NCBI GenBank assembly: GCA_963851215.1
Contig: CAWKOG010000017.1
Location: 345,465 to 409,464 of the forward strand
Origin: an uncultured Alphaproteobacteria bacterium
GTDB taxonomy: Bacteria; Pseudomonadota; Alphaproteobacteria; Dongiales; Dongiaceae
Length of the DNA stretch: 64,000 nt
Direction: 5' to 3'
Shown one piece after another: positions 14,261-50,144 of this stretch. Position 1 is the stretch's first letter; each line of letters begins with the position of its first letter. The notes below the pieces were generated by a model. The model saw nothing but the letters and a program-made list of their open reading frames with translations. It had not been told where the DNA came from and ran no database searches. The position numbers were made by a program, and so were the translations under genes.

Positions 14261-14851
14261 CTATTCGGCGGCGCGCTGATCCGTGACTGACTTGCCGAGG
14301 AAATTGCGCAAGAGATCGTAGCCATGCTCGGTCAGCACGGCTTCCGGATGGAATTGCAGTCCGACGATCGGATGGCGGCGATGGGCGAGCGCCATGATCT
14401 CGCCTTCCTGGCTTTCGGCCGTGATTACAAGATCTTCGGGCAGATCTTCTTTGGCGACTACCAGGGAATGGTACCGCGTCGCCCGCAGCGGATTTGGCAG
14501 GCTGGCGAAAATGCCGGCGCCATTGTGCCGGATCATCGACGTCTTGCCATGCATCGGCCGCCGGGCGCGGACGATCCTGCCGCCGAAAGCCTGGCCGATG
14601 CTTTGATGGCCGAGGCAGACGCCCAGGATCGGAATGGACGGACCGAAGCGCCGCACCGTCGCCACGGAAATTCCGGCTTCATTGGGTGTGCAGGGACCGG
14701 GCGAGATCACGATGTGGGACGGTTTCAGCGCTGCGATTTCGTCCAGGCTGAAGCCGTCATTGCGTACGACCTGCGTGGACCAGCCGAGTTCGCGAAGATA
14801 GCGCGCCAGGTTGTGGACGAAGGAGTCGTAATTGTCGATCACCAGGATCAT
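14261..14851 (-). CDS. pabA: aminodeoxychorismate/anthranilate synthase glutamine amidotransferase component
   Basis: MILVIDNYDSFVHNLARYL… is the canonical TrpG/PabA N-terminus, with the catalytic Cys in GVCLGHQ. GGGAGGCGG RBS. Its neighbour is pabB-like in an H4MPT cluster (pABA is an H4MPT precursor). Confidence 0.85.
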   Translation of the reverse strand: MILVIDNYDSFVHNLARYLRELGWSTQVVRNDGFSLDEIAALKPSHIVISPGPCTPNEAGISVATVRRFGPSIPILGVCLGHQSIGQAFGGRIVRARRPMHGKTSMIRHNGAGIFASLPNPLRATRYHSLVVAKEDLPEDLVITAESQEGEIMALAHRRHPIVGLQFHPEAVLTEHGYDLLRNFLGKSVTDQRAAE

Positions 14852-16319
14852 GACCGCCTCCCGGGCCGGTCAGCGCCGCAATCAAGGCCCGCGCCTTGGC
14901 GACCGTCTCGTCATATTCGTCCGCCGGGCGAGAATCCGCGACAATGCCGCCGCCCGCCTGGAACGTCACCATGCCGTCCTTGATGCCGTAGGTGCGGATG
15001 GTGATGCTGGTATCCATCGAGCCGTCAAAGCCGATATAGCCGATGCTGCCGCAATAAGGGCCGCGGCGGGTCGGTTCGAGTTCCGCAATAATCTCCATCG
15101 CCCGGATCTTCGGGGCGCCGGTGATCGATCCCCCGGGGAAGCAGGCCGCCAGCAGATCGACCGCCGTCTTGCCCGGCTGCAATTCGCCGGTGACCGTCGA
15201 CACCAGATGAAACACCGTGGCGAAGGTTTCGAGCTCGCACAGCCGCGGCACGTCGACCGATCCGTCGCGGCAGACACGGGAGAGATCGTTGCGCAGGAGG
15301 TCGACGATCATCACATTCTCGGCGCGGTCCTTCTCGCTGGCCAGAAGCTCGGCGGCCAGCACCTCATCCGCCTGGGGCGTCGATCCGCGCGGCCGGGTTC
15401 CCTTGATCGGGCAGGTTTCGACCTGACCATGCTGCAGTCTCAGGAAGCGTTCGGGCGACGCTGAAACGATCTCGACATCGCCAGACTTGATCAGGGCCGC
15501 AAATGGCGCAGGATTTATCTTTCGCAACCTGCGATAGAGATCGAAACCAGTGAGTCCCTTTGGCAGTCTTGCTTGCAAGCACTGTGAAAGGTTGGCTTGA
15601 AATATGTCGCCGGCGAGGATGTAGCTTATGACCCGCTCCACGGCGGTTTCATAACCGGGCTGCGTGAAGTTGGATTGCAATTCGACCCGTCCGCTTACCG
15701 GCGCCGGCTGCGGCAGCGTTGCCGCCGACTCGATCCGGCGAAGGATGTGGTTGAGTCTCTCAATTGCAAGTTGTTCTCGATTGGCCGCGTCGGCATTGGG
15801 AAATCCGCTCGAAAAAATCCAAGCGCGTTGCGCCTGATGATCGACGGCGATGACGACATCGTGGAATCCGATCACCAAATCCGGAAACTGCATCTCGTCA
15901 TAGCGCGCCATCGGCACGCGCTCCAGATGCTGCGCAAGCTCATAGCCGAAATAGCCGACCGCTCCGCCTTGAAACGGCGGCAGATCTGGCGCCGGCGAAA
16001 AGCTGAATCGGCTGAGCTGTTCATCCAGCAGTTGAAACGGATTGCCCTGAAGTACGCGCTCGCCCAGGGCAATATTGCCATTCTTGCTGCTCAGAATCTG
16101 GAATGGCTCGATAGCGATATAGGAGTAGCGGCCGCGCTCGCCGTCGGTTACCGCGCTCTCCAGCAACACGGCATGGCGATCCCTGGCGAAGGGCGCAAAG
16201 AGTTCCAGCGGATCGCGATAGGCGATCTCCCGGACCAGCGGAGAAACAGCCTGGCCGGCAGCCGCGATATCGGGCACCCGCGGATGCGGCGGTATTTTCG
16301 GCAAGGTCTGTTGCATCAT
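14757..16319 (-). CDS. pabB: aminodeoxychorismate synthase component I (chorismate-binding enzyme)
   Basis: …PGGSITGAPKIRAMEIIAELEPTRRGPYCGSIGYIGFDGSMDTSITIRT…GGGIVADSRPADEYDETVAKARAL. Start ambiguous: TTG 16349 or ATG 16319. The reading frame extends 37 codons past the conserved C-terminus into pabA. Confidence 0.8.
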   Translation of the reverse strand: MMQQTLPKIPPHPRVPDIAAAGQAVSPLVREIAYRDPLELFAPFARDRHAVLLESAVTDGERGRYSYIAIEPFQILSSKNGNIALGERVLQGNPFQLLDEQLSRFSFSPAPDLPPFQGGAVGYFGYELAQHLERVPMARYDEMQFPDLVIGFHDVVIAVDHQAQRAWIFSSGFPNADAANREQLAIERLNHILRRIESAATLPQPAPVSGRVELQSNFTQPGYETAVERVISYILAGDIFQANLSQCLQARLPKGLTGFDLYRRLRKINPAPFAALIKSGDVEIVSASPERFLRLQHGQVETCPIKGTRPRGSTPQADEVLAAELLASEKDRAENVMIVDLLRNDLSRVCRDGSVDVPRLCELETFATVFHLVSTVTGELQPGKTAVDLLAACFPGGSITGAPKIRAMEIIAELEPTRRGPYCGSIGYIGFDGSMDTSITIRTYGIKDGMVTFQAGGGIVADSRPADEYDETVAKARALIAALTGPGGGHDPGDRQLRLLRPQPGALSSRTRLVHAGRTQ

Positions 16320-16363
16320 GGCGCCGCATTGTTCCCAGGCGCGGCGCAATGTGCAACATTTGA

Positions 16364-22499: not shown

Positions 22500-22797
22500 A
22501 TCACTGGCTGCGGAACAGACAGGTGGGAGCGCTGGCGGCGAGGTTCAAGGAAAATTATCCTGTCCCTGACGATCCCTTTCCGGCCGCTATGTAGGTGGCT
22601 GCGGGAGGTGACGCCTCGCCCTCACCCGTTCCGCAGGCTAAGCGACAGGCGTGCCTAACTCTTTCGAATGGCAACGAAATTCCTGTCACCGCCAAGCGCC
22701 GGAACAAAATTCCGGGATCGTACATTGTTCAGTTTGGGTCGCAGGATGCCGCGCAGACGCATCCATCAGGGCAAGCAGGCGTAGCAGCTTGGATAGG

Positions 22798-23154
22798 ATG
22801 GCCCCGATGAACACGGACAATCGCCTTATTGCTTCTTCTTCCATGACAATGCTCGCCGGCCTCGCGGTGATTGCCGTGCCGATCGTTCTCGACACGCAAT
22901 CGGCCGAGGCCGGCACAATTTATTGCGGCGCGCGGCCGGATGTCGTCGAACTGTTGGCGAGTGATTTTCGCGAGCAGCCTTCCTCCGTTGGCGTAACCGG
23001 CGATGGGCGGTTGCTTGAGGTGCTCACAAACGAGGACGGCGCGACTTGGTCAATCGTCTTGACGGACAGCCGCGGCCAGAGCTGCATCGTCGCCACTGGT
23101 GAAGGATGGCAGAACCGCAAGGTGGATCCGGTCATGCTCGAACCGCAGCTCTAG
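22798..23154 (+). CDS. small secreted protein (signal peptide), first gene of the ExbB/ExbD-like module
   Basis: ATG 22798 or 22807 after GGATAGGA. MAPMNTDNRLIASSSMTMLAGLAVIAVPIVL… signal peptide, then a ~90-aa mature domain. Confidence 0.5.
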   Translation: MAPMNTDNRLIASSSMTMLAGLAVIAVPIVLDTQSAEAGTIYCGARPDVVELLASDFREQPSSVGVTGDGRLLEVLTNEDGATWSIVLTDSRGQSCIVATGEGWQNRKVDPVMLEPQL

Positions 23155-23166
23155 GGGCGTTCGATC

Positions 23167-23751
23167 ATGACCATTGCGAACTTCGAAGCGCCGGCCGAGG
23201 ACGAACCCCGGGACGCCGACTGGTATCGAGGGGCCATCGATGCGGCACGCAGCTCCACCGCGAGCACACAAATCGGCGTACAGCCCGACCCAAGAGTTGG
23301 CGATATCGCAACAGCACGCGCCGCATCTTTGGATGCGGCGTTTCTTTCGCGCTTCATCGTTCTCCAGGCCATCGGTGCCTCATTCGTCACGGCATTGTGG
23401 ATCGCCGGCGTCGCGACCCGTCCTTTCGAGGGCGCGACCGCGGCACTCTGCTGGATCATCGTCGCGGTCGGCAGCGTCGGCGTTCTCTGCACCCTCCTCC
23501 AGCGCTGGCGTGACGTGCAGTGGATCGCCACGCATGTAGTGCGCATCGGACTGCTGGGCACCGTCGTCGGCCTGATCATCGCCTTCTCCGCGGCGCGCGA
23601 CAGCGGCGGCGCCGATGTGAATGGGGTGAAAGCCATGATCTCGGCCGTCGTGGACGGGATGTATGTCTCGCTCTACGCCACGCTTCTGGGGATCGGCATC
23701 AATCTCTGGCTCAAGATCAATCTGCGTCTGCTCGGCAACAGCGATGGATGA
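23167..23751 (+). CDS. MotA/TolQ/ExbB-family proton-channel protein (short, 194 aa, 4 TM)
   Basis: C-terminal GLLGTVVGLIIAF…ISAVVDGMYVSLYATLLGIGINLW matches the MotA/TolQ/ExbB channel signature. Confidence 0.65.
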   Translation: MTIANFEAPAEDEPRDADWYRGAIDAARSSTASTQIGVQPDPRVGDIATARAASLDAAFLSRFIVLQAIGASFVTALWIAGVATRPFEGATAALCWIIVAVGSVGVLCTLLQRWRDVQWIATHVVRIGLLGTVVGLIIAFSAARDSGGADVNGVKAMISAVVDGMYVSLYATLLGIGINLWLKINLRLLGNSDG

Positions 23752-24331
23752 GGAGACGCTCACCGTCTGGCTGGACACGGCGCTGCTGATGCTCGGCGGC
23801 TTCGTGCTGATGACGGTGCTGATGATGACCGTTGTCAATCCGCCGGCCAAGTCGGCGGAACAAGAGGGCGATCGAGCGCCCGGCAACGTGGTCATTGAAG
23901 CTCAATGGCAGGATCGGCTCGACGCCGATGTGGATTTGTGGGTGGCGGCGCCCGGCGATACGCCAGTGGGCTACTCCAACAAGAACGGCCGCGTATTCAA
24001 CCTGCTGCGCGACGACCTCGGCATGGCGCAGGATATGACCGATGTGAACTACGAGATCGCCTATAGCCGCGGCATGCCGGCCGCCGAGTATGTGGTCAAT
24101 GTGCATCTCTACCGGGTTATCGGCTCCACCGGTCCGATCGAAGTGAAGCTGATCGCGAGCCGGCGGACCGACGAGGCGGGCCAGACGCAGCAGCTCGCGT
24201 CCACCACCGTCCGGTTGCTGCATCTTAACGACCAGGTGACCGCCTTCAGGTTCGATCTCGATAGCGACGGCGACCTGGTTCCCGGCAGCATGAATACGCT
24301 GTTCAAGGAATTGCGCGTGGCCTCGCAATGA
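23744..24331 (+). CDS. ExbD/TolR-like membrane-anchored periplasmic protein (atypically long periplasmic domain)
   Basis: ATG 23744 overlaps the previous gene by 8 nt. N-terminal TM (TVWLDTALLMLGGFVLMTVLMMTV), then a ~150-aa soluble domain. Confidence 0.5.
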   Translation: MDEETLTVWLDTALLMLGGFVLMTVLMMTVVNPPAKSAEQEGDRAPGNVVIEAQWQDRLDADVDLWVAAPGDTPVGYSNKNGRVFNLLRDDLGMAQDMTDVNYEIAYSRGMPAAEYVVNVHLYRVIGSTGPIEVKLIASRRTDEAGQTQQLASTTVRLLHLNDQVTAFRFDLDSDGDLVPGSMNTLFKELRVASQ

Positions 24332-24816
24332 TCGCCACCGCCATCATTTTCGCATTGCTGCTGGGCGGATTCGTGTTCCGCGTCCTGCCACAAGGTGTCA
24401 TGTGGCAACGTGGCGTGTCGGCGGCCCTGTTCTTGCTGTTGGTTGGGCTCGTCTATGGCGGCGCGGTCGAGCTGCTGGGCCAGCCCAAACCGATGCGGCT
24501 TGAGTGGCGCGGCGGGGCCGAGGAAGCCGATGTTCTTGGCGCCTCGATGGCGGAGGGCGAAGCGATCTACGTCCTGCTGCAGTATCCCGACGGCATGCCG
24601 CCGCGATACTATCAGATTCCCTGGTCGCAACCGGCCGCGGAAGCGCTGCAGCAGGCACTGCGGGACGGCCAGGAACAGGGCACCGGCGTCAAGATGACAA
24701 TGGCCGACGGACCGGGCGGTCAGCCCGGCAACGACACGCGCGAGCCGATGTTCTACGCCCCGCCCCAGGCGGCCCTGCCGGACAAGAACTACAGCGCGAA
24801 TCTTTCGTCGAACTAG
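24328..24816 (+). CDS. small membrane protein with Pro-rich C-terminal tail
   Basis: 4-nt overlap with the previous gene. Two N-terminal TM helices. Confidence 0.5.
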   Translation: MIATAIIFALLLGGFVFRVLPQGVMWQRGVSAALFLLLVGLVYGGAVELLGQPKPMRLEWRGGAEEADVLGASMAEGEAIYVLLQYPDGMPPRYYQIPWSQPAAEALQQALRDGQEQGTGVKMTMADGPGGQPGNDTREPMFYAPPQAALPDKNYSANLSSN

Positions 24817-25320
24817 AGACCAGCCAAAGTTGAAAGTGCCGCATTGAATGTCCTCTGTTTCCGTCGTACGGAAACGAGGCGGCAGTGTTCATGTTCGGTC
24901 ACCGGCGCCGGTCTAACAGAGACCGCGCCGACGAATGTCGGCCAGGCAAGCCGACCAGGAGCTATAGTTGCCGAACTATCTGCAGACCTGTTAATATTCC
25001 TTAATCACTGACCAAATTTTGCCACGCAGAACCGACGAATATTGTGCCCAAATAAGTAATTATTATGCGCCTGCTGCCGGCGCACGATAACTCGTTGGTA
25101 CTGTTGATAAATTTTACTTTGAATGAGACAGACTCGGCGCAGGCGGCAACTGCCGCATGTGACAATACTCACAGTAGATTTTGAATACTCGGCGTTCATT
25201 CCGCCTTTAATCAGCAGTGATCTGCGGGCCGCAGCCCGGTGGGCCAGACTCTGCATCTAAGTCCGGCCCTCAGAATAGATCCGCTGAAGTGCGCGAACAC
25301 TCGACGAACGAGAGCGCATC

Positions 25321-26439
25321 ATGACACTGAGCCTGACAATCACTGGTCAATCGGACTCCAAGCTCAAACTGGCTTGGCGTGACGATGAGCAGTCTTTCAG
25401 CCCGGCGCCCTATTGCGTCGGCCAGAACATTGTCCTGGATGCCAGCAAGCAAGTCCGCGACGTGCTGACCAGGATAAGCACGCACTATCGCACGTCCGAC
25501 GCGCCGAGCTATGCCGCGTTTCTGCCAGAGCTGTCGCAACGCGGTATCGAGCTCCACGAGTCGCTCTTTCTGCCCATTGAATTGGGTCAGAGCGACGCGG
25601 ATGAGGTGAAGGATTACATAGCAGACTTATCGGCCCGGGAAGCGTTGACCATCTACTCGGATGCAAGCGCGCACGTGCCCTGGGGCTTCGTGTTTCCGGG
25701 GCCGGAGGCGATCAGGAGCGAAGATGCCGTCGGCTCAATTGTCGACTTCAAGGACTTCTGGTTGTCCCGCTTCTGCATTGCCACGAGGTTCAGCAAGACA
25801 TCGCACCTGAAGGATGAAGTCCGGAGCCGGACAAATTTTCGGGTCCTCTATGTGCTTCACAAGGACGCCTTTCAGAAAGCACGGAGCCAATTGGCGCCGC
25901 CAGACCAGCTTTGCCTGGACCGGCTGATCGCAGAGGATGCGGCGAACGCCGTGGATTGGAACTCGGCCCGCGACAAGTGGCGCGCGATCGCGGAAAACGA
26001 CAGCATCATCTACATCTTCGGCCACTCGAACGGGCAGGAGATCGCTCTCTCGGACGGTGATGAACCTCATCACCGCCTGAGCGCCGGCGCATTTCGCAGC
26101 TCGTTCAAGAAGAAGGGAACCAGGTCCGCCACGATCTGCTTCACCAACGGATGCTGGACAGCGGCAGGGCACAAGGACCAGAGCTTCCTCACGGCGACGG
26201 CGCTGCCGGGATTTCATGGATTCATCGGCAGCGAGGCCGAGGTCTCCAACGAATTCGCGACGCGGTACGGCCTGGAATTCATGCGCGACATCTGCGACCG
26301 CGGTTGTTCGATCCAGGAGACATTCGAGCACCTGCGGCAAGAGCTCTTTCCCTTGAGCCTCCTCTACTCCTGCTTCGCGCACGGAAAATTCCGGATCGAG
26401 CCACGCGCGGCACCGGCGAGTCAAAGCAATGCGGCGTAG
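25321..26439 (+). CDS. CHAT-domain (caspase-like cysteine protease) protein
   Basis: 372 aa. His motif IIYIFGHSNGQEIAL and Cys motif ATICFTNGCWTAAG, followed by GFIGSEAEVSNEFATRYGLEFMRDICDRG. This is the CHAT His/Cys dyad layout. The gene follows a 470-bp AT-rich spacer and has lower GC than its surroundings. Confidence 0.75.
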   Translation: MTLSLTITGQSDSKLKLAWRDDEQSFSPAPYCVGQNIVLDASKQVRDVLTRISTHYRTSDAPSYAAFLPELSQRGIELHESLFLPIELGQSDADEVKDYIADLSAREALTIYSDASAHVPWGFVFPGPEAIRSEDAVGSIVDFKDFWLSRFCIATRFSKTSHLKDEVRSRTNFRVLYVLHKDAFQKARSQLAPPDQLCLDRLIAEDAANAVDWNSARDKWRAIAENDSIIYIFGHSNGQEIALSDGDEPHHRLSAGAFRSSFKKKGTRSATICFTNGCWTAAGHKDQSFLTATALPGFHGFIGSEAEVSNEFATRYGLEFMRDICDRGCSIQETFEHLRQELFPLSLLYSCFAHGKFRIEPRAAPASQSNAA

Positions 26440-27832
26440 CGCGGCCCAGAAAAGGTCTCCCGATATCGGGACACCGCCCGCGACCGGCGCATGGCCTGCG
26501 GAACCCTATCTCGGCATGAATTTCTACACAGCGGCCGAAGCACCCCTGTTTGGAGAGCGCGATCAGGAGATAGAGCAATGCGCGGCGCTGGTTGGTGAGT
26601 TCTCGACTCGATTACTCGTCCTGCAAGGGAAAAGCGGTACGGGGAAATCCTCATTCCTGCGGGCCGGCCTGATCCCAAAGCTGGAGCAGCAGGGCTCTCC
26701 TTTCTACTTCCTGCGAGCGGAGAAAGGAAACGCCGAGCCCACTTTCGTTCGGTGCACGGACGATCCCGTGAGCCGAATCCACGCGCTTCTGGTGTCCGCG
26801 CTCGAGAACGATCCACAGCTCGGACGGCTTCCCATCGGCTTCCGGCAAGCAGTCGGAGAATTGCTCGCATCCGCGGCGTCAGACGATCGAGTTGATACAG
26901 CGGCCGCCATCCTCAAGGTACTCGCCGTGCTTTCAGAAGGTCTGCCGCAAACGCTGGTGCTGATCATCGATCAAAGCGAGGAAATACTGACCCTGCAGAC
27001 ATCGCGCGATCCGAACAACCGGCGCAAGGCGTTCTTCTATCTGCTCGAGGAACTTTGCCTGCGCAGTCTTGACGTCAGGGTCATTGTTGCGCTTCGAACC
27101 GAGTTCTGCGGCCGTTTCTATGACGCCTTTGGCATCAATCCCAGCCTCAGGGTCACATCGGACGTGCGCGCCGGTCTCGAGCAATTCATGCTCGGCGCAT
27201 TGCCGCGGGAAGGAATTGTCGCGGCGATCCTGCGGCCAACGCTGGCGACACCGATCGAAGGCTATGGCGTCCCGCGGGAACAATACCGATTCAAGTACGG
27301 CGAAGGCGTGGCCGAACACATCGCGGAGGATCTGCTCAGCCATTGCGGCGACTCCAGCACATTGCCGGTCCTGCAAATCGCCTGCAAGGCGCTCCACAAT
27401 CAAGTGGTCATCGGGAAGAAATGCCCGAAGATCACGATCGAACACTACAAAGCCCTTGGGGGCGTCAAAGGGCGAGTCGACGCATATATCGACGACGTCT
27501 TACGGGGTGCGCTGCAGGAAACCGGCGCAACTTCAGTGAGTTCCCGCCGACCTCGTTCGCTGGCGCCGGGTATTGGCAACATTGGCCGCGCGGCAAGAGG
27601 GGAATGCCGTAACCACCCTGATTCGCGCGGAGCACGACATCGTCAACGAGGCGGACCGGCAAGAGCTCCGCGGCGACATTCCAAGGATCTTGAAAACACT
27701 TGCCAAGCACAAGTGGCGGCTTTTGAGATCCGTCATAGGCGGTACAAACGGGGCAGCCCGTCAGTACAGCCTCGGTCACGATGCGCTTGCTGTTGCGTTA
27801 CTCAAATGGGACGAGGCGCAGCAGGGCCTTGA
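26429..27832 (+). CDS. STAND-type P-loop NTPase, N-terminal segment (the last ~95 codons are out-of-frame junk)
   Basis: PYLGMNFYTAAEAPLFGERDQEIEQCAALVGEFSTRLLVLQGKSGTGKSSFLRAGLIP (Walker A) and LVLIIDQSEE (Walker B), typical of STAND NTPases that pair with CHAT proteases. After …ALQETGATSVSS the frame turns Arg-rich nonsense, while frame 0 becomes protein-like from 27540. Confidence 0.65.
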   Translation: MRRSAAQKRSPDIGTPPATGAWPAEPYLGMNFYTAAEAPLFGERDQEIEQCAALVGEFSTRLLVLQGKSGTGKSSFLRAGLIPKLEQQGSPFYFLRAEKGNAEPTFVRCTDDPVSRIHALLVSALENDPQLGRLPIGFRQAVGELLASAASDDRVDTAAAILKVLAVLSEGLPQTLVLIIDQSEEILTLQTSRDPNNRRKAFFYLLEELCLRSLDVRVIVALRTEFCGRFYDAFGINPSLRVTSDVRAGLEQFMLGALPREGIVAAILRPTLATPIEGYGVPREQYRFKYGEGVAEHIAEDLLSHCGDSSTLPVLQIACKALHNQVVIGKKCPKITIEHYKALGGVKGRVDAYIDDVLRGALQETGATSVSSRRPRSLAPGIGNIGRAARGECRNHPDSRGARHRQRGGPARAPRRHSKDLENTCQAQVAAFEIRHRRYKRGSPSVQPRSRCACCCVTQMGRGAAGP

Positions 27833-28496
27833 AAGCGCAGAGAGGGAACGCCTCGGCGCGCGCCGGAAGCTGCAAACCTATTCTCTCGCGTTCCTCTGCT
27901 TGTTGCTGTTTATCGTTGGCTCCCTGCTTTGGAAAGAAGGCACGCAGACGGTCGACCGGAGTGAAAGGCTGATCGAGTTCTCGAATGTCGAACAGGGCGG
28001 CAATTTCAGACTGAGGATACAGCTGCTGCTGAGCGCGCTGGCTCTTTCAGATGGGCTTTGGAGCCCATTCATAGATGGCGAGAGAGCCCGCAGCGAACTG
28101 ATCGCCGCCCTTGCGGTTTCGCCCATCCTTGCCGGCCAGGGAGTAGCGGTCGGGCTGAATGACGAGGGAACCAGGATTGCGGTACTTCGAGACGAGTCGG
28201 CGTTCGTTGTCGATCTTGAACGTGACAACAAGGAAGAAGTATCGACCTTCAAATTTGTGCCTGGCGAGGTTCTCGAAGCATTCAGGCAGCACCTGCCTGC
28301 AATCGGCTTTGTCTCCGGCATGGCGGCGCCGGTTGTATACGATGCGGGATATCTGTACTGGAACTCCGGTACGGCGGGATCAACGCAAATCCAGGAACTT
28401 TCACAGGACATCAGAGAGTTCTCAGAATCTGGGATTTTCGCCTGTGGGGTTTGCATCCGGCTTTGTGCAAGTGCTGATCTCCAATCGCCCCAATGA
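27573..28496 (+). CDS. middle segment of the same STAND gene (helical region with one TM-like stretch); probably not an independent gene
   Basis: Frame 0 is protein-like from 27540 (…WRRVLATLAARQEGNAVTTLIRAEHDIVNEADRQELRGD…) with no ATG. The only possible starts are weak TTGs. It ends in short junk after 28430, where frame 1 becomes protein-like. Confidence 0.4.
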   Translation: MATLAARQEGNAVTTLIRAEHDIVNEADRQELRGDIPRILKTLAKHKWRLLRSVIGGTNGAARQYSLGHDALAVALLKWDEAQQGLESAERERLGARRKLQTYSLAFLCLLLFIVGSLLWKEGTQTVDRSERLIEFSNVEQGGNFRLRIQLLLSALALSDGLWSPFIDGERARSELIAALAVSPILAGQGVAVGLNDEGTRIAVLRDESAFVVDLERDNKEEVSTFKFVPGEVLEAFRQHLPAIGFVSGMAAPVVYDAGYLYWNSGTAGSTQIQELSQDIREFSESGIFACGVCIRLCASADLQSPQ

Positions 28497-29382
28497 GACT
28501 GAGAATTGGATCAAGGTCCTCCGCGTAACGCCTCAAATGATTCAGAATGGCTCTCTCCCGAGTTCGACCAGGATTAGCTGGAGGGGGCCACTTTCCTGGC
28601 CGATCATTTCGACGCAATCAGACAAGTTTGCCTACGTGGGCAATTCTCGCGAGCAGGAAATATACAACAGCATCATGCTTTCCTCGCTGTCCGATCCAAC
28701 GCTTGTCTCGCTTGTCTACGGCTTGCCGAGTATGCGAAGCAGCGGTTTCGACCCATCCATTTCGCTGACTTTCGCCAACTCGGGGAATTCGCTGATCGTT
28801 CGCGACACTCGAGAAACACTGAGGATTTTGCCATCGGCGCAGGACCGGCGGGCCCGGCTCCTTGCACGAGCCGCTCCGGTTGTTACGATTCCGGAGGGGC
28901 TGCGGGACGATCCCGTTCAGCCGCGCCGGCTAACGATGCGGCCACTCCTCGCCGCGGCAAAAATCGACAGCGAATGGCGATTTGCATGGTTGACGGAAAA
29001 CGGAATTGCCGTGATCAGAAGCGAGGCGAGCGACCCAGAGAATGCGCAGCCGGTCGTTGACGCAAGACTTCTCACGGGAGCCGCCGACCTGGCGAACGCC
29101 TTCAAGCTGAGTTTCAGCAAGGACGGGCGCTTTCTTGTAGTGCTTCTGCGCTCGCGCATGCAGCCGCAGAGCCGGCAGCGCGGACCGATGCGGTACCTGG
29201 TCTGGGATCTCAATTACAGCAAGGCCGATCTTCGGAATGCGACCAATCAGGAGTTGCGCGACAAAGCCTGCGCCACAGCCGCGCTCGACAAGGCGGAGGC
29301 GCTTGTCACGCCCGTCGAGAAATTCGTCTGGTTTCACGACTCGGCGCTGCCCTGCGGCGAACCTCCCACCGCAGCGCCCTGA
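28159..29382 (+). CDS. C-terminal beta-propeller (WD40-like repeat) segment of the same STAND gene
   Basis: From about 28430, frame 1 shows repeated blade-like units (FAYVGNSREQEIYN, ISLTFANSGNSLIVRDTRETLRI, WRFAWLTENGIAVIRSEAS, AFKLSFSKDGRFLVVLLRS, MRYLVWDL). Upstream of 28430 this frame is junk. Confidence 0.45.
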   Translation: MTREPGLRYFETSRRSLSILNVTTRKKYRPSNLCLARFSKHSGSTCLQSALSPAWRRRLYTMRDICTGTPVRRDQRKSRNFHRTSESSQNLGFSPVGFASGFVQVLISNRPNETENWIKVLRVTPQMIQNGSLPSSTRISWRGPLSWPIISTQSDKFAYVGNSREQEIYNSIMLSSLSDPTLVSLVYGLPSMRSSGFDPSISLTFANSGNSLIVRDTRETLRILPSAQDRRARLLARAAPVVTIPEGLRDDPVQPRRLTMRPLLAAAKIDSEWRFAWLTENGIAVIRSEASDPENAQPVVDARLLTGAADLANAFKLSFSKDGRFLVVLLRSRMQPQSRQRGPMRYLVWDLNYSKADLRNATNQELRDKACATAALDKAEALVTPVEKFVWFHDSALPCGEPPTAAP

Positions 29383-29386
29383 AGCG

Positions 29387-30466
29387 ATGACCGACTTCCT
29401 CGCCAGAATGGGGGGATTTGTAGAGAAGCTGCGTTCCAGCCCGATGCCGCTGCCGACGGTCTCGGAAATCGCCCATGATCGCTGCTTGCCATCAGGCGTC
29501 GCCGGCCGTGAGATCGTCAAGGACAATGGCTACTTTACGGTGTGGCTCAACGAGCTGTTCCTTGCGGAGGGGCGCAACTGGTGGGCAACTTACGACCCCG
29601 TCGCCATTGTCGTCACGGAATTCGGCTATGGCACCGGAAGAGTCTCGGTGCCGGTCATTGTCGGACCCAATCTCATTTCGGCAAAGAATCCCGGCGTCCC
29701 GCACGGCATTGTGCTCCGCGACACCTGCGTCGCCGGGCCATATCCCTTCCGCGGCGGCAATGTCGCGATTACCGTCATCCTGTACAAGGTGAAGCATCAG
29801 GACTATGCCCGCGGATTGCTGCGTTTCGTCGAGAGTCTTTCTTCGGCGATTGGAACGCCTGCCGACATTGGCATGCTGGCGAAGGTCGGGGGCACTGTCC
29901 TCGATGGCCTGGAGTCTCTGTTGAATCTGGGCGACACGGTGCCGGTGGCCGGCCACAGGATTGAGATCGACACGTCAACATTGAGCGGCTTCGTTTCCTC
30001 CTATACGGCGCTGATCGCCGAGCGCGATGTCGACATGTCGCAGCTTCGGGTCGAGGAACGACGGCTCCTGCTGCAACAGTCCGATGGGACGAACACGAGA
30101 TTCGAGAAGGCCGACTATGTCCTGTACAGCGTTCTCGGCCGGGAACGCCGGGGCGACGAGAGCACGTTGCCGTTCTATCGCGCGTTCTTGCAGGCTCGAA
30201 ATGCCGCCATGGTGAACAATCCGGACAACTGGAAGCGCGCCAAAGCGATGCTCCTGTCGATTTACGAGCAGATGGTCCTAAGCCCGGATCTTACGTTGCG
30301 GGAGGCCGACGCATTGTTTGACTCCTACCGCGAAGATCTGTTGGCCATCCGGAAGAAATCGCAGGCCGTACATGCCATGCCCCTGGGACAGGAGCCGCCC
30401 CGGCCCGACGCCAGGGAAACCCGCGTGAACAACGCCACCTCGGTGCTGGACCTGGAGCCAACCTAA
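29387..30466 (+). CDS. hypothetical protein, 359 aa, third gene of the CHAT/STAND islet
   Basis: ATG 29387 lies 4 nt after the STAND stop. No recognisable motifs. Lower GC like the two preceding genes. Confidence 0.55.
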   Translation: MTDFLARMGGFVEKLRSSPMPLPTVSEIAHDRCLPSGVAGREIVKDNGYFTVWLNELFLAEGRNWWATYDPVAIVVTEFGYGTGRVSVPVIVGPNLISAKNPGVPHGIVLRDTCVAGPYPFRGGNVAITVILYKVKHQDYARGLLRFVESLSSAIGTPADIGMLAKVGGTVLDGLESLLNLGDTVPVAGHRIEIDTSTLSGFVSSYTALIAERDVDMSQLRVEERRLLLQQSDGTNTRFEKADYVLYSVLGRERRGDESTLPFYRAFLQARNAAMVNNPDNWKRAKAMLLSIYEQMVLSPDLTLREADALFDSYREDLLAIRKKSQAVHAMPLGQEPPRPDARETRVNNATSVLDLEPT

Positions 30467-30550
30467 GCTCCGATGGCAGACAGAACGCGGGGCGCGGGGA
30501 GCCCGCACCCGGCGCCGGACGATGTACGACCGGCGCCGGCCTGATCAGAC

Positions 30551-31360: not shown

Positions 31361-31397
31361 GAAGCGAAAAAGGCCGCACCGTTGCCGGTGCGGCCTT
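31361..31397 (-). terminator. rho-independent terminator downstream of the SPFH gene
   Basis: 12-bp perfect stem AAGGCCGCACCG/CGGTGCGGCCTT with a 4-nt loop, followed on the minus strand by TTTTTCGCTTC. Confidence 0.55.
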
Positions 31398-31424
31398 CTC
31401 CGTCCCGTCCTCGTCACCATCGCC

Positions 31425-32576
31425 TCACGCCGGCTCCGGCGCCTTCAGGCGCAGGAGCTTGCTGAGGAGGGCGTCGAGGCCCTGGGCTTCGCCGGCGTGG
31501 AGGTCGATGCGGCCGACCTTCTCCACCAGCTTCTCGAGGCTCTCGAGCTCCTTCAGCCGCAGGAGGAGCGGGTTGTCCTCCATCAGCTTGGCGGTGTTCA
31601 GGAGCGAGCGCGTCGCCGCGGTCTCCTCCTGGCGGCGGATCAGGTTGGCCTTCGCCGTCCGCTCCGCCTCCACCACTTTGTTCACGAGCTCGCGGATCTC
31701 GCCGGGCAGGATCACGTCCTTCACGCCGAGCTCCGTCACCTCGATGCCCGTCTCGCCCAGGCGCTCACGCACGAACGTACGCAGCTCCTGATCGAGCGCG
31801 CCCTTGGCGGAGAGCACCTCGTCCAACGTCCGCGCCGCCACCGCCTCGCGGATGGCGAACTGCACCAGGCGGTACAGCCAGCCGTCCACATCCGCGACCG
31901 CGCTCGCCGCGCGCTCGGGATCGACGATGCGGCGCAGCGCGGAGAGCGTCACGCGCAGGGCGATGCGGTCCTTGGTCAGCATCTCCTGCGCGGTGATCTC
32001 CACCGCCTGCGGCCGCAGATCCACCCGCTTGACCTCTACCTTGCGGTTGACGGTCCAGTAGGCGTGGCGGCCCGGCGCCAGGCGTTCCACCAGGCGGCCC
32101 TCGACATAGAGCAGGCCGGCCTCGTGGTTCTCCACCACCGTCTCCGCCAGGTAGACGCTCCGCGCGCGGTCGAGCAACGTCAGGTGCCGCGCGGCCACGC
32201 GGGGCTCGCGCGCGACATCGATGCGCTCGACCTCGACGGCCGTGGCCACCTTCCAGAACACGCGCACCTGCCACGGACCGGCCAGATGGACCGGCCGGCC
32301 GTCGAGGCTGACGATGGCGAGCTCATCGGCCCGCGTCTCCACCGCCTCGAACAGTTCGGCCGCCATCGCCGGCCGCTCCGCCTTCATCACGGCGTAGCGG
32401 TCTGCCGCGAACTCGGCGCGAACCACCTGGAAGATCTCGGCCTTCAGCGTGCTCAGCGGATCGAAGACCCAGTGACGGCCCGGGCCGAGCACGCGCTCGT
32501 ACCGGCCGTTCCGCGTCAGGAGGGCGCGCTCGCCATCCTTCACGGTAACGCGGAGACTCAGAATAAGCCTACTCAT
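31425..32576 (-). CDS. SPFH/band-7 (stomatin/flotillin-like) domain protein
   Basis: ATG 32576 with GGAGG RBS (the ORF-track 17-aa N-terminal extension is unlikely). Long coiled-coil C-terminal part typical of SPFH proteins. Confidence 0.8.
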   Translation of the reverse strand: MSRLILSLRVTVKDGERALLTRNGRYERVLGPGRHWVFDPLSTLKAEIFQVVRAEFAADRYAVMKAERPAMAAELFEAVETRADELAIVSLDGRPVHLAGPWQVRVFWKVATAVEVERIDVAREPRVAARHLTLLDRARSVYLAETVVENHEAGLLYVEGRLVERLAPGRHAYWTVNRKVEVKRVDLRPQAVEITAQEMLTKDRIALRVTLSALRRIVDPERAASAVADVDGWLYRLVQFAIREAVAARTLDEVLSAKGALDQELRTFVRERLGETGIEVTELGVKDVILPGEIRELVNKVVEAERTAKANLIRRQEETAATRSLLNTAKLMEDNPLLLRLKELESLEKLVEKVGRIDLHAGEAQGLDALLSKLLRLKAPEPA

Positions 32577-32907
32577 GGTAACCTCCACACTTCGGCCTTG
32601 CGGCCATGCCGCAAGACTCTGTTGCAACTCTGAGGATACGGGTTCCGGACGCGTCTTCGCGAAAGACCGGCGGGCCAGGGCTTGAGCCCGCGGGAATCAG
32701 CGGGCGCGCGCCGGCGCGCACCGCACCGAGGTGCTGTGAACGGCAGCCGAACCCGACGATCCGCGCGGGCGATATCCGCCCCGGCGCAGAGCCGGTCTCA
32801 AGTTGTCTGGTACGTTCGATGGGCCTCTCGGCCAGCCGACCGGACCGCGACTGAAGCGCGCGTCCGGTTCCCTAAAATGGGTTTCAGTTTTTCAGGCTGA
32901 ACCGGAG

Positions 32908-32980
32908 CGTTGGAGCGGGACTCGAACCCGCAACAAGATGCTTAACAGGCATCTGCTCTTACCATTTGAGCTATCCTCAC
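32908..32980 (-). tRNA. tRNA-Asn(GTT)-like sequence with defective acceptor stem (possible pseudo-tRNA)
   Basis: Hand-folded. D arm GCTC-AAATGGTAA-GAGC, anticodon arm GATGC-CTGTTAA-GCATC (anticodon GTT), T arm GCGGG-TTCGAGT-CCCGC. The 5' acceptor GTGAGGA pairs with 3' TCCAACG at only 3 of 7 positions. No CCA. Confidence 0.4.
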
Positions 32981-32983
32981 TTA

Positions 32984-33056
32984 GGCGTTCGGACGGAATC
33001 GAACCGTCACCTCCGGGGACAATCCCCGCTGCTCTGACCACAGAGCTTCGATCGCG
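32984..33056 (-). tRNA. adjacent tRNA-like sequence (acceptor 6/7 bp, aberrant anticodon loop; likely pseudo-tRNA)
   Basis: Acceptor GCGATCG/CGAACGC, D arm GCTC-TGTGGTCA-GAGC, T arm GACGG-TTCGATT-CCGTC. The anticodon stem CGGGG/CCCCG encloses only 5 nt, or a 7-nt loop GATTGTC without U33. Confidence 0.3.
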
Positions 33057-33268
33057 TTCCTCGTCAGGCGGTACACGGACACGCAGAGCGCACCGCGCCG
33101 GCCGGGACATCAACGAGCCCGGACCCGAGGCCGAACGAAGGAGCGGGCTTATGCGCCAACCGGATTTCGAATTCAAGATGGAATCTGCACCGCATGGTTG
33201 CGGTCGCGCATTTTTGCAATGCGTTGTGGCGCGGTGGCCACAAAGAGTTGGACAGGATGGGAGACGAA

Positions 33269-36623: not shown

Positions 36624-37577
36624 TCACGGGCAGGTGGTCAAGCCGCTGTAGCCCACAAGCGTATTCAACGTGTCCACATATCCGGGATCGGTGACAAAGG
36701 CCGTGCCCGCATAATTTGCTGGGCCATAGGCGGATCCCGGCTGAATCGAGTAGGCCGAGACATTGGCATCCGGGCTGCAGCCCGTGTTCTCCTGGGCGGC
36801 GAGCCAGGTGCTGAGCAGCACCGGCTTGTCGAACATGCCGGGGTCGATGACCATCGCCAGTACGAGCTTGGCGCCCCGGCAGCCTCTCAACCTAAGTCGC
36901 ACACGGATGAGCGGCGCCACGTGATACCACCAGGTGACGCAGCAGCCGCCCCATTTGTCGGCCTTCACGGCAAGCGTGTCGTTGCCTTGGTTCGCAAAGC
37001 TGAACACCTTTTCGCAACAATATCCGTAGCGCGTCGTGATGATCCGCCGCATCTGGTGCGCCCGCGCATAGCAGCCGTCGCGGACATATTGAAAGGGAAT
37101 GCAGGGCGGCACAGGGTATGGGCCGGGCAGATGGCAGGAGAGCTGCGCGCAAAAGTCAAAGATCTGCTTCGCCTTGGCGTAGTTCGGCACGATCTTTGTG
37201 CAGCGCCGGAAAGCCGGCCATTTCAGATAGGTATCGGCAAAGTTGAAAGTGGTCGGGTCGATCTTCCCGACCTGGATGCGCACCACCTTGTCCGGTTTTT
37301 CCAGCGGCACGCGCTTGCGCGTGTATTCTTCCAGCTCCCGCTTCGTCGGCTCGGACACGCGCTCGATCAGCCCGCGCCTGAGGTTCATCACGACCTTTAC
37401 GGGCCGGTTCCGGCCGCGCGCAGCCTTCAGGTAGCCTGACTTCCGCTCGTCCGAAGCAGCCTTCTCGGCAAGGGTGAATATCCGCTGCCGCTCGTTGAAA
37501 ATGTACTCGACGGGTCTGTTCTTGCCTCGGCGTATGGCCGCAACAGTCAGAATGCCGGTTTCACGTGCGGTGGTCAT
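36624..37577 (-). CDS. hypothetical Cys-rich protein (317 aa)
   Basis: ATG 37577 with GGAGGAGG RBS. The ORF-track 65-aa N-terminal extension is rejected. Cys-rich C-terminal half (…GYCCEKVFSF…WGGCCVTWWYHV…). Confidence 0.6.
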   Translation of the reverse strand: MTTARETGILTVAAIRRGKNRPVEYIFNERQRIFTLAEKAASDERKSGYLKAARGRNRPVKVVMNLRRGLIERVSEPTKRELEEYTRKRVPLEKPDKVVRIQVGKIDPTTFNFADTYLKWPAFRRCTKIVPNYAKAKQIFDFCAQLSCHLPGPYPVPPCIPFQYVRDGCYARAHQMRRIITTRYGYCCEKVFSFANQGNDTLAVKADKWGGCCVTWWYHVAPLIRVRLRLRGCRGAKLVLAMVIDPGMFDKPVLLSTWLAAQENTGCSPDANVSAYSIQPGSAYGPANYAGTAFVTDPGYVDTLNTLVGYSGLTTCP

Positions 37578-37857
37578 GATGCCTCCTCCACGTCGTTGTG
37601 TGATGGGCCGGTAAGCGCTTCTTACTGCTGTTGTGCGGTCCGGCCGGGAATATTGCAGGAAGTAGCCGCGGTATGATGATCCGGGCGACAGCTTCCTATG
37701 ATGCGCGCCATCGGCGCGGTCGAATGCCGGACAATACGCCGCATGCTCGGAACAGGGTGTGACTAATCTCACACCTCGCGAGTGGCCCGGTCACAGCGGG
37801 GTACGCCGCGTCTTGGCGGCTATCTTGAATATGCGAGCACGGTATCCCGTGAGCGAT

Positions 37858-47194: not shown

Positions 47195-47259
47195 ATTGCT
47201 ATTTGATTTTACTGGCGACCCCACGGGGATTCGAACCCCGGTTTGCGCCGTGAGAGGGC
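47195..47259 (-). repeat. direct repeat of the 3' end of tRNA-Glu (47 nt identical to 50145..50191, plus ~18 nt of flanking similarity), att-site-like
   Basis: TGGCGACCCCACGGGGATTCGAACCCCGGTTTGCGCCGTGAGAGGGC occurs at 47213..47259 and again in the intact tRNA-Glu gene. The upstream half of the tRNA is missing here. Confidence 0.6.
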
Positions 47260-47474
47260 AAATCAGAGCCATTTCCGGACGCCACGGGACACCCTAGGAC
47301 CATGCGCATGCTGACCAAATAACGTGCACGGAACCTTTGCACTCAAAATCGGCTTGAATATAGATGTGTACGATAACGTACAATTCGAGGACGCTCGGCC
47401 AAGGCCGATAGCTCAAGGGTCGCGATTGACGCGACGGCGTGCTCCACCCCGATCCATCGTGGGAGGGCCGCGTT

Positions 47475-47879
47475 ATGCCTTTGAATCCTTCAACAATCTG
47501 CATTCTCGTCGTCGACGACGAAGCCCTGCTGCGTCTAGATCTCGGCGACGCCCTGAGGGAGGCCGGATACGACGTTTTGGAGGCAAGCGATGCCGATCAG
47601 GCCCTTTGTTACTTGCGCAATAGATGCCCGATTGATGTCGTAATCACCGATATCGAACTCGGCGCGGGCCCAACGGGATGGGATGTCGCTGAGACCTTCA
47701 GGGCGGCACGGTCGGATATACCGATAATCTATATCTCCGGGGTTGCAGGCGATCGGCGTCGAAGAGTCTCTGGAAGCACCTTTTTTGCCAAACCCTACGC
47801 GATGTTGGAAATCGTGGATTTCTGCCGCGGCTTAAATGGGGCCAAATCGCACCAGAGAAACTCGAACCCTCCATCATAG
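47475..47879 (+). CDS. response regulator receiver-domain protein (islet-encoded)
   Basis: ICILVVDDEALLRLDLGDALREAGYDVLEASDADQAL…VVITDIELG… receiver motifs. Lower-GC context. Confidence 0.65.
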   Translation: MPLNPSTICILVVDDEALLRLDLGDALREAGYDVLEASDADQALCYLRNRCPIDVVITDIELGAGPTGWDVAETFRAARSDIPIIYISGVAGDRRRRVSGSTFFAKPYAMLEIVDFCRGLNGAKSHQRNSNPPS

Positions 47880-47882
47880 CCA

Positions 47883-48086
47883 TTAATCTGAAGGACGCGA
47901 TTCGTCCCGCCGATCCGATGAGTCTTTTGTATCTCCTGCGTGCTGCTGATTGAGCGGTGCTGCGCCAAACGATTTCGTAAATGGCGTTTCGGTGCCGCAC
48001 TCAATGCACTTCGCTACCGGTCTGCCAACACTGTCGTAGAATATCTTGAAGGCGGTGGTAAAGCATTTCGGGCAAGCAGAGCTCAT
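47883..48086 (-). CDS. small zinc-ribbon protein, paralogue A (CPKC…CIECG)
   Basis: ATG 48086 with GGGGAGGGG RBS. MSSACPKCFTTAFKIFYDSVGRPVAKCIECGTETPFTK…. Confidence 0.5.
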   Translation of the reverse strand: MSSACPKCFTTAFKIFYDSVGRPVAKCIECGTETPFTKSFGAAPLNQQHAGDTKDSSDRRDESRPSD

Positions 48087-48302
48087 GTACCCCTCCCCGA
48101 GCATGGAGATCACGCCTCTTCGGCGCGGAGTATTCCCACTACCACGACTTTGTTACGGGAAATGGTTCCGCAGGTCGATTTCGGAGTCTAAGACGGTGGT
48201 TGGCGAGGATGCCGTACGCCGCCGCCTCGCGGGCGACTATCGGATCTGGTTCGCTGGCGATGGATGCGCGATTCCTGACCGAAGCGCCGACTGGAATCAC
48301 CG

Positions 48303-48494
48303 TCAGTCCGTCAAACTACCTAGGTCTGGTGCGTCTTGTTCTGCAGGCTGCTGACTGAGTGGCGTTGCGCTGGAAGCGGTCTTTGTAAACAGTGTTTCTG
48401 TGCCGCACTGAACACACTTCGCTACTGGCCGTCCGACACTGTCGTAGAAAATTTTGAATGCGCTGGTAAAGCACTTAGGGCAAGCGGAGACCAT
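48303..48494 (-). CDS. small zinc-ribbon protein, paralogue B (CPKC…CVQCG)
   Basis: ATG 48494 with GGGGAGGGAAAC RBS. N-terminal 38 aa ~85% identical to paralogue A. Confidence 0.5.
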   Translation of the reverse strand: MVSACPKCFTSAFKIFYDSVGRPVAKCVQCGTETLFTKTASSATPLSQQPAEQDAPDLGSLTD

Positions 48495-48722
48495 GTTTCC
48501 CTCCCCGACTTAGGATATTTCGCCGCTTCGGCGCGGAGTATTTCCGGATAACACAAGTTTATTGCGGAAATTCATTCCGCCGTTCGATTTAGGCGTCAAG
48601 AGCCTTCGGGATTTCCTTTGTGCGGTTTCGTACAAATCCCCAAATTGCGACAAGTGCGATCCTCAGTTTGGAGTATCGTTGGCGGGTAATGGCGTCGGCA
48701 TAACGGTGACGAGACGAACGTC

Positions 48723-48989
48723 ATGCCGAAACCTTCAGGGAAGTTGTCCAATGATCCAAAAGACAAGATCCAGGCTTGTCTGAATCATTGCTGGGCGCGT
48801 TCCAACGCCATCTCCGGACGGGATTACTTCAATGCGTGCAAACGTTGGTGGATAACCCTGACTTCAGAGCAACAGGAATCATGTGTTGCCGTGGTTGACG
48901 CGTATCGGCTCACGCACTGGAAAGCCGCAGAGCGGAAGGCCTCAACCTTACCGGCAGCGCCGAAGTGTCCGGCGAGTTTCCTCGAATAA
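48723..48989 (+). CDS. hypothetical small protein (88 aa)
   Basis: ORF in the low-GC islet. Composition is protein-like but there is no further support. Confidence 0.3.
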   Translation: MPKPSGKLSNDPKDKIQACLNHCWARSNAISGRDYFNACKRWWITLTSEQQESCVAVVDAYRLTHWKAAERKASTLPAAPKCPASFLE

Positions 48990-49135
48990 TCCCGACGCTG
49001 CTGCGGCATAGCCGGCGTACTGCGCAGGAAGAGATTGATGGCGTTCTCGTCCTGGGTTATTATTGTGGATTGAGTTTGCGGAATTAGGGCCACCTACCAA
49101 GTCGGCCGACACAGGACATCAGCGGGGGCGATGTC

Positions 49136-49501: not shown

Positions 49502-49520
49502 CGGCCGCACACAGCTATGC

Positions 49521-50024: not shown

Positions 50025-50144
50025 TACGATTTGATCGCAATTCAGGGCGACATTAGCAGCGCTACCGGCCAGGATTATATTCGGGAACCGTTGGGGAAGA
50101 TTTCCCTATAAGCCCGGCTCCGCCCTGTGAGTTATTGCTTTTAT

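Follow-up and report, generated by a model that had tools for sequence, protein, structure and literature searches.

What kind of system is encoded by three tightly packed genes of lowered guanine-plus-cytosine (GC) content in the genome of an uncultured alphaproteobacterium of the family Dongiaceae? The question is raised by a stretch of 64,000 nucleotides (nt) of contig CAWKOG010000017.1 (assembly GCA_963851215.1), hereafter the window. In it, an earlier note had singled out the islet at positions 24850-30470 as a CHAT protease, a STAND NTPase with a beta-propeller and an unfamiliar partner, together a candidate conflict or defense system. We hold, with moderate confidence, that the locus is a three-gene, horizontally mobile STAND-protease-effector conflict module that would serve immunity or programmed cell death. 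The parts list of the earlier note proved largely right; what it had observed was confirmed in part, and its interpretation was likewise supported in part. It overlooked a conserved transmembrane helix in gene 2, and a membrane anchor combined with an extracytoplasmic sensor changes the likely mechanism. The features of the locus, including two single-base insertions located by alignment with the related contigs L018 and L019, are the following.

24817..25320, + strand: low-GC non-coding leader, 52% GC, which from 24957 onward moves with the cassette
25158..25173, + strand: CRP/FNR-type palindrome TGTGA-N6-TCACA, candidate operator, lying 163 nt before the start codon of gene 1
25321..26439, + strand: gene 1, predicted divergent CHAT-like (separase/Csx29/caspase-fold) cysteine protease, 372 residues (AlphaFold2 model, Foldseek, invariant H235/C278)
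26023-26025 and 26152-26154, + strand: codons of His235 and Cys278 of gene 1
26429..29382, + strand: gene 2, membrane-anchored nSTAND1 NTPase, 983 residues after removal of two T's (PF20703, colinear tblastn)
26504..27517, + strand: nSTAND1 NTPase domain, with Walker A GKSGTGKS at 26627-26650 and Walker B LVLIIDQSEE at 26954-26983
27541..27541, + strand: frameshift 1, extra T, GAGTC to GAGTTC (alignment with L018 and L019)
27876..27932, + strand: single transmembrane helix TYSLAFLCLLLFIVGSLLW (hydrophobicity, lysine and arginine flanks)
27933..29379, + strand: predicted extracytoplasmic C-terminal domain, plausibly a divergent beta-propeller, hypervariable (profile matches)
28419..28419, + strand: frameshift 2, extra T, GAGTC to GAGTTC (alignment with L018 and L019)
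29269-29271 and 29353-29355, + strand: codons of the conserved terminal Cys pair of gene 2
29387..30466, + strand: gene 3, member of a large unnamed protease-associated family, 359 residues, predicted beta-sandwich plus helices, with motif GPYPFRGG at 29735-29758

The three genes, their products and their spread

The three co-directional genes described earlier at 24850-30470 are indeed found on the + strand, tightly packed between 25321 and 30466. The end of gene 1 overlaps the start of gene 2 by 11 nt, and 4 nt separate gene 2 from gene 3. Gene 1 (372 residues) and gene 3 (359 residues) are clean open reading frames (ORFs), and the peptide strings on which the first description was based (IIYIFGHSNG, ATICFTNGCWTAAG, PYLGMNFY..FGERDQ and LVLQGKSGTGKSSFLRAGLIP) are all present in the translations. 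The islet has a GC content of 59.1%, compared with 63.4% for the window and 63.6-63.8% for its 10-kb flanks, which places it in the lowest 5% among windows of equal size. GC at third codon positions (GC3) is 0.68-0.77 in the trio and 0.78-0.88 in neighboring genes. The islet is thus lower in GC than its surroundings, as had been said, and the dip is modest. The non-coding stretch in front of it (24817-25320, 504 nt, 52% GC), which falls in the lowest 1.3% among 470-nt windows, had been called AT-rich; relative to this genome its GC is low, yet by an absolute measure the stretch is not rich in AT. The neighbors of the islet are ordinary chromosomal genes (ABC transporters, an SPFH protein, DUF899, AHSA1 and ArsR-type genes), and within the window no integrase, transposase or phage gene flanks it, in agreement with the earlier description.

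The order gene 1-gene 2-gene 3 is kept in ~15 distinct loci, with the genes overlapping or abutting. It was found in Azospirillum brasilense, Bradyrhizobium, Rubritepida, Neoroseomonas lacus, an Acetobacteraceae metagenome-assembled genome and Paraburkholderia ribeironis, and also in every metagenome contig (many of them from soil) with enough upstream sequence. Several copies adjoin IS66 or Mutator-type transposase or integrase fragments, and in L019 the cassette block corresponding to 24957-30465 lies in a different, rearranged context. Judged from these sequences, this is the behavior of an accessory cassette that appears to move horizontally. The earlier note had made its proposal depend on co-location of the homologues in other genomes and on a GC content different from that of the flanks. 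Since the trio occurs together and in the same order in every proteobacterial locus with enough sequence, and its GC content is lower, neither point tells against the proposal.

The AlphaFold2 model of gene 1, obtained from the family alignment, has a predicted local distance difference test score (pLDDT) of 88 and a predicted template modeling score of 0.87. Foldseek searches of the PDB with this model returned separases, Csx29/TPR-CHAT of Craspase and DdvA (a CHAT anti-sigma factor) as the best matches, followed by caspase-8, caspase-7 and CED-3, with E-values from 1.4e-7 to 1e-2 overall; the separase-securin structure PDB 7nj1 is among the matches. His235 (FGHS) and Cys278 (NGC) are invariant across 14 sequences. 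In the model, H235 (GHS) ends strand 227-233 and C278 (NGC) ends strand 271-276, as in clan CD peptidases. The family is small (15 proteins found). Gene 1 has no Pfam match at E≤1, the CHAT family PF12770 included, nor is one precomputed for the 15 homologues, and PADLOC and NCBIfam gave no match. The profile search of the PDB placed the CHAT protein 8tl0 at E=0.1, with the same His and Cys aligned. The CHAT His/Cys dyad reported earlier therefore stands as regards the fold and the invariance of H235 and C278, but not as regards a match to the CHAT profile. Because the fold matches and the invariant His/Cys pair agree while membership by hidden Markov model fails, it is on a structural basis that we call gene 1 a divergent CHAT-like protease, as predicted from the model.

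Gene 2 matches the Pfam family nSTAND1 (PF20703) with an E-value of 5.5e-36 and 125.4 bits, against a cut-off of 27.1, and contains both Walker A and Walker B motifs, which bears out its assignment as a STAND NTPase. Searches against PADLOC-DB v2 gave only weak P-loop-level matches (best 7.5e-5). To regard its N-terminus as a hallmark of the STANDs that pair with CHAT proteases was, however, an overstatement, given that descriptions of nSTAND1 proteins include effectors of many types (PMC8195603). The full-length relatives of gene 2, about 58 in number (940-1050 residues), share one strongly hydrophobic helix near residue 480, and the most hydrophobic window of 19 residues falls at residues 450-550 in 56 of the 58. 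Lysine and arginine average 5.4 in the N-terminal flank of this helix and 2.0 in the C-terminal flank, the former exceeding the latter in all but one of these homologues (57/58). Because the transmembrane helix has positive-inside flanks, these signals point to a topology in which the NTPase is cytoplasmic and the C-terminal 480 residues are outside.

For this C-terminal domain no Pfam match, WD40 included, was obtained with the window protein or with the full-length relatives. The family profile weakly matches beta-propellers in the PDB, first the WD40 domain of PkwA (3.4e-5) and then the periplasmic PpgL and TolB, and hhalign comparison with the WD40 regions of distant nSTAND1 proteins gave probabilities of 80-92%. 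The WD40-like blades proposed for gene 2 are plausible but weakly supported, because the profile matches to propellers are weak and Pfam gives none. The Cys pair near the C-terminus is invariant in the family. Comparison of the window with L019 revealed an uneven divergence: identity is 86-100% over gene 1, over gene 2 up to residue ~470 and over gene 3, whereas the remainder of gene 2, beginning with the transmembrane helix, is only 34-76% identical (~55% overall). Hypervariability of the outside domain within an otherwise conserved operon would be expected if this domain were a surface for ligand recognition, shaped by diversifying selection or by the exchange of cassettes.

The statement that gene 3 has no recognizable motifs held true, with no match in Pfam, PADLOC, NCBIfam or a profile search of the PDB. 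Its model (pLDDT 79) comprises a beta-sandwich, weakly C2-like, into which a helical hairpin is inserted; toward the C-terminus the protein is helical. Comparison with the gasdermin fold was negative, and neither a catalytic nor a pore-forming signature was found. A profile search of 1.84 billion representatives, with clusters counted at 50% identity, retrieved 1293 clusters at E≤1e-3 and 366 at E≤1e-30, mostly stand-alone proteins of ~350 residues. The most conserved, exposed motif is PFR-GG (residues 120-124). By analogy with the R-G cleavage sites reported for a caspase-activated hydrolase (bioRxiv 10.1101/2025.11.14.688446), it is a candidate cleavage site. The sole significant viral structural match of gene 3 is an uncharacterized protein of the giant virus Hokovirus HKV1 (A0A1V0SF49, E 3.3e-7, template modeling score ~0.4), and no homologue was found in phage genomes.

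The family to which gene 3 belongs is conserved next to peptidase genes, both in the ~15 trio loci and beside caspase-family and C1 neighbors. On a Pseudanabaena plasmid, the gene 3 homologue lies between a SAV_2336/VMAP-like gene, itself preceded by a MoxR ATPase, and a caspase-family gene. On a Sporomusa plasmid it directly follows a C1 papain-like peptidase (L036 6883-7782), and in a Chloroflexi genome a distance of 3-4 kb separates it from a CHAT gene recognized by Pfam and from the gene of a NACHT-FGE STAND. A fusion of gene 3 with a C-terminal DUF900 alpha/beta hydrolase takes the third place in one Bradyrhizobium trio. As relatives of gene 3 adjoin various peptidases and can carry this fusion, the third position would seem to mark an effector slot. 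The presence of a homologue in the MoxR/VMAP-like locus of Pseudanabaena suggests that the family is shared between NTPase-switch systems. A C1 papain-like peptidase is also encoded two genes upstream of the Azospirillum trio (L001 5771-7460), and this type of peptidase may be a recurrent extra partner.

Upstream of the genes, homology of the leader with the differently placed L019 cassette begins at 24957, so that ~360 nt travel with the cassette. Its final ~150 nt hardly vary in L018, L006 and L019, and near the start codon of gene 1 the leader is more conserved than coding sequence. The half-sites of the palindrome TGTGA-N6-TCACA are invariant, with a variable spacer, in four relatives. Exact sites of this kind also precede gene 1 in the distant L012 and L029, where gene 1 is only 28% identical, and the window holds 2 CRP-type sites versus 0.03 expected. 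It is a reasonable inference from these sites that a Crp/Fnr-family regulator controls the operon. The second exact CRP-type palindrome of the window (TGTGACTAATCTCACA, 37758-37773) lies near the start of a glutaminase-like gene (36624-37772). A structured RNA in the leader was considered and rejected, since the z-score of the fold (−1.56) is not significant, covariation is almost absent and Rfam gives no match.

Proposed mechanism and its competitors

From the domain identities, the membrane topology signals, the hypervariability of the sensor, the gene order and the association of gene 3 with proteases, we infer an activation chain directed from the outside to the inside of the cell. An extracytoplasmic cue would bind the variable periplasmic propeller of the membrane-anchored gene 2 STAND, whose ATPase and winged-helix part would be cytoplasmic. 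Binding of the ligand outside would lead to NTP-dependent oligomerization of the cytoplasmic nSTAND1 module, and such oligomerization is an established property of STAND NTPases. The oligomer would recruit or activate gene 1, the stand-alone CHAT-like cysteine protease, which in turn would cleave the gene 3 protein and release an effector. The freed effector may be directed to the membrane, given the weak C2-like fold and the lipase-like DUF900 hydrolase fused in some relatives. Expression of the operon is probably controlled from the conserved leader with its CRP-type operator. In this scheme gene 3 would be toxic, and the trio would serve defense, perhaps against phage.

Several observations weigh against the assignment of the locus to a conflict module acting in this way. 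The coding sequence of gene 2 is not intact in this genome, where it carries two +1 frameshifts. The CHAT assignment of gene 1 finds no significant sequence support in Pfam, the PDB profile search or hhalign, the last of which gave a probability of 1.8% against one Pfam-positive CHAT protein. Some gene 3 homologues have no evident peptidase neighbor. No model in PADLOC, Pfam or NCBIfam ties gene 1 or gene 3 to a defense family, and a PADLOC scan of 41 neighbors in four loci, a small sample, found only a PD-T4-6-like kinase in Paraburkholderia. Moreover, in L019 (6009-9995) gene 2 has lost its stop codon and the latter of the two conserved Cys residues through indels at its end, and gene calling then yields a single ORF of 1328 residues for genes 2 and 3. 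This ORF may be a true fusion, a copy in decay or a fault of the assembly; if it is real, gene 3 would be periplasmic, on the side of the propeller, in conflict with cleavage by a cytoplasmic protease.

Comparison with known systems gives the proposed chain its precedents. Protease-effector modules linked to STAND sensors act by site-specific cleavage, and transmembrane STAND ATPases are listed among the sensors (Evans et al., bioRxiv 10.1101/2025.11.14.688446). Like the trio, Avs-type modules of this kind join a sensing STAND NTPase to a cysteine protease of the caspase-like type, with a neighboring effector on a small genome island for which licensing by cleavage is presumed. In the trio, by contrast, the protease is a separate gene that is not fused to the STAND, and the predicted sensor is an extracytoplasmic propeller. 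Gene 3 also differs in size, fold and profile from the characterized effectors, being neither a metallo-beta-lactamase, an alpha/beta hydrolase, Pepco (117 residues), EACC1 (~13 kDa) nor a gasdermin. The passages of PMC8195603 and PMC7159879 retrieved by keyword describe nSTAND1 conflict systems that resemble gene 2 in the nSTAND1 model and occur with peptidase effectors and repeat sensors. The effectors described there are coupled through fused domains or effector-associated domain (EAD) adaptors, whereas no EAD was found in the trio. A conserved transmembrane helix, an outside propeller or the gene 3 partner were not found in those passages.

In Craspase (gRAMP/Cas7-11, the TPR-CHAT protein Csx29 and its substrate Csx30), the CHAT fold is structurally similar to that of gene 1. 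There, too, a sensor-activated protease cuts the product of a neighboring gene, which for the trio is a proposal. The two differ in that the sensor of Craspase is an RNA-guided CRISPR effector and not a STAND, and in that Csx29 bears TPR repeats; gene 3 is unrelated to Csx30, as no PDB profile match was obtained. Bacterial gasdermin systems with caspase-like or CHAT proteases also place the protease gene beside a non-enzymatic protein that is rich in beta structure in one part and helical toward its C-terminus. Release by cleavage, reportedly set out for bacterial gasdermins by Johnson and coworkers in 2022, is the logic proposed for the trio as well. A likeness to the vWA-MoxR-VMAP ternary systems (PMC7159879) is seen on the Pseudanabaena plasmid, where a gene 3 homologue and a caspase-family gene immediately follow the MoxR and SAV_2336/VMAP-like genes, whereas the window trio has a STAND in place of the MoxR/vWA pair. 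The trio has three unusual features: a stand-alone, highly divergent CHAT-like protease, a membrane STAND with a hypervariable sensor predicted to be outside, and a putative protease-associated effector family that is undescribed.

The same outside-in route could instead serve physiological signaling, in which an envelope or environmental cue would act through the STAND on regulated proteolysis, with gene 3 as a regulatory substrate in a DdvA-like arrangement. The extracytoplasmic sensor would suit such a role, and the conserved CRP-type operator and leader suggest physiological control. Defense-gene neighbors are few, gene 3 has no catalytic or pore-forming signature, and DdvA, a transmembrane CHAT anti-sigma factor (PMC11506125), is among the structural matches of gene 1. 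We nevertheless consider this reading unlikely. The distribution of the trio is patchy and associated with transposons, as befits a mobile cassette, and its sensor is hypervariable between operons that are ~90% identical. The lipase-like DUF900 is fused in the gene 3 slot of one variant, the frames are repeatedly disrupted in environmental copies, and the conserved trio includes neither a sigma factor nor a transcription factor.

Separase is kept in check by securin in the separase-securin complex, and the best structural matches of gene 1 are precisely separases, which are restrained by a bound partner. Gene 3 might by this analogy be a securin-like inhibitor, a chaperone or an adaptor, and the released separase-like protease would itself kill by acting on cellular proteins. 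This would agree with the lack of enzymatic motifs in gene 3 and with the attachment of a further enzyme, DUF900, to the gene 3 domain, as though the latter were a carrier or had a regulatory function. We find it improbable. The gene 3 family pairs with unrelated peptidases (caspase family and C1 papain-like), and because of these partners a common role as substrate or effector explains gene 3 better than that of a dedicated inhibitor. Furthermore, in characterized modules of like layout the neighbor is a cleaved effector (bioRxiv 10.1101/2025.11.14.688446).

Should the trio be the conflict module that we favor, its interest would lie in the sensor and in gene 3. Characterized bacterial STAND immune sensors (Avs, bNACHT) recognize phage proteins in the cytoplasm. 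If the topology predicted for gene 2 is true, a STAND with a variable sensor outside would extend this sensing to surface or periplasmic cues, and would stand nearer to animal receptors. The gene 3 family, large, unnamed and found beside three types of peptidase, is a candidate for a further class of cleavage-activated effectors, whose target, to go by the DUF900 fusion, might be a membrane or a lipid. We therefore advance, as a tentative proposal only, that gene 3 founds an undescribed, widespread family (~1300 clusters) of protease-licensed, possibly membrane-directed effectors, and that the trio is an outside-in immune receptor working through a hypervariable periplasmic propeller. With three genes in 5.5 kb and intact orthologues in L018, the trio is compact enough to be directly testable.

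The interruption of gene 2

Gene 2 had been taken for a single ORF; this was not borne out, for it is split over three frames (26429-27540, 27542-28418 and 28420-29382). Intact homologues from Azospirillum and Bradyrhizobium are colinear over the three frames by tblastn, and relative to the two independent relatives L018 and L019 the window gene has exactly two extra bases. L018 is a syntenic contig with the same flanking genes, 92-93% identical at the DNA level, in which gene 2 is uninterrupted and encodes 983 residues. Once both T's are taken out, gene 2 of the window reads through without a stop codon, and its product shares 94.4% identity with the L018 protein. The ratio of nonsynonymous to synonymous substitution rates (dN/dS) relative to L018 is 0.08 for gene 1, 0.13 for the repaired gene 2 and 0.12 for gene 3. 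Being frameshifted twice, the local copy of gene 2 may be dead or very recently inactivated, or it may be mis-assembled.

The view that the frameshifts are assembly or base-calling errors in a specific context, and that gene 2 is intact in the organism, seems to us evenly poised between true and false. In its favor, the context and the inserted base are the same at both sites, which argues for a context-specific artifact. The pentamer GAGTC belongs to the GANTC sites, at which the CcrM methylase of Alphaproteobacteria acts. Gene 2 is otherwise perfectly conserved and under purifying selection, and consensus errors of long reads would be plausible in a 706-kb contig from a lineage of uncultured type. 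Yet the 19.5-kb syntenic stretch holds 11 further GAGTC sites that show no such insertion, and GANTC counts equal those of the relative. All GAGTTC/GAACTC sites of the window were tested and revealed no other split gene, and if errors were spread at random the chance of both falling in one gene is ~0.05. A general base-calling error at GANTC sites was rejected on these grounds: other GAGTC/GANTC sites are intact, and deletion of a T at each of the 45 GAGTTC/GAACTC sites restored no other gene.

The confinement of both insertions to one gene and the intact state of the other GAGTC sites argue for a real and very recent inactivation. The two T insertions would then make the local module a recently inactivated relic, which is compatible with the function proposed for the family as a whole; we regard this as a serious possibility that falls a little short of probable. 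No other 1-nt indel falls within coding sequence over the 17.5 kb that are syntenic with L018, the remaining ones being intergenic, and the single gene that holds both insertions makes up 4.6% of the window. Changes of frame are not confined to the window: L027 and L029 show them in gene 2 and L030 in gene 3, which fits the frequent loss expected of a costly module. Set against this are the repaired gene without a stop codon, 94.4% identical to its intact orthologue and with a dN/dS (0.13) like that of its neighbors, and the duplication of an identical T in the pentamer GAGTC twice, improbable by chance when ~5 such sites exist in 2.95 kb.

The frame changes in the three soil metagenome copies of the module, out of 12, are located at ~1722-1740 (L027) and ~4656 (L029) for gene 2 and at ~1123-1165 (L030) for gene 3, and none is at a GAGTC site. 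Elsewhere in the window, an apparent frameshift at 14786 was dismissed as an ordinary pabB/pabA overlap. On the − strand (14261-16349), a pabB-like gene (14757-16349) overlaps a pabA-like glutamine amidotransferase gene (14261-14851) by 95 nt, and deletion of one base would fuse the two, imitating a frameshift in the screen.

Other features of the window

Four genes occupy 22651-24816, directly upstream of the islet. One of them encodes a small MotA/ExbB-like protein (23167-23751), whose match to ZorA_2 is weak and below threshold, and the products of the other three have no family. This cluster varies among close relatives, part of it missing in L006 and all of it in L019, and elsewhere it is unlinked to the trio. 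As a candidate part of the system it was rejected, since neither L019 nor any of the distant trio loci contains it and L006 has it only in part.

On the other side of the islet, a high-GC segment of 1.8 kb (31396-33210) is absent from the otherwise syntenic L018 and L007. It holds an SPFH/Band_7 gene (31425-32627, − strand), a tRNA-Asn (32904-32981) and an atypical tRNA call (32984-33055). Further downstream, a complete tRNA-Glu(CTC) at 50145-50220 is accompanied by a partial copy, the 3' half only, at 47213-47291. The ~2.9 kb between the two copies are the lowest-GC DNA of the window (54-57%) and have no long ORFs; by these signs, the region 47213-50220 looks like the remnant of an element that integrated at tRNA-Glu.

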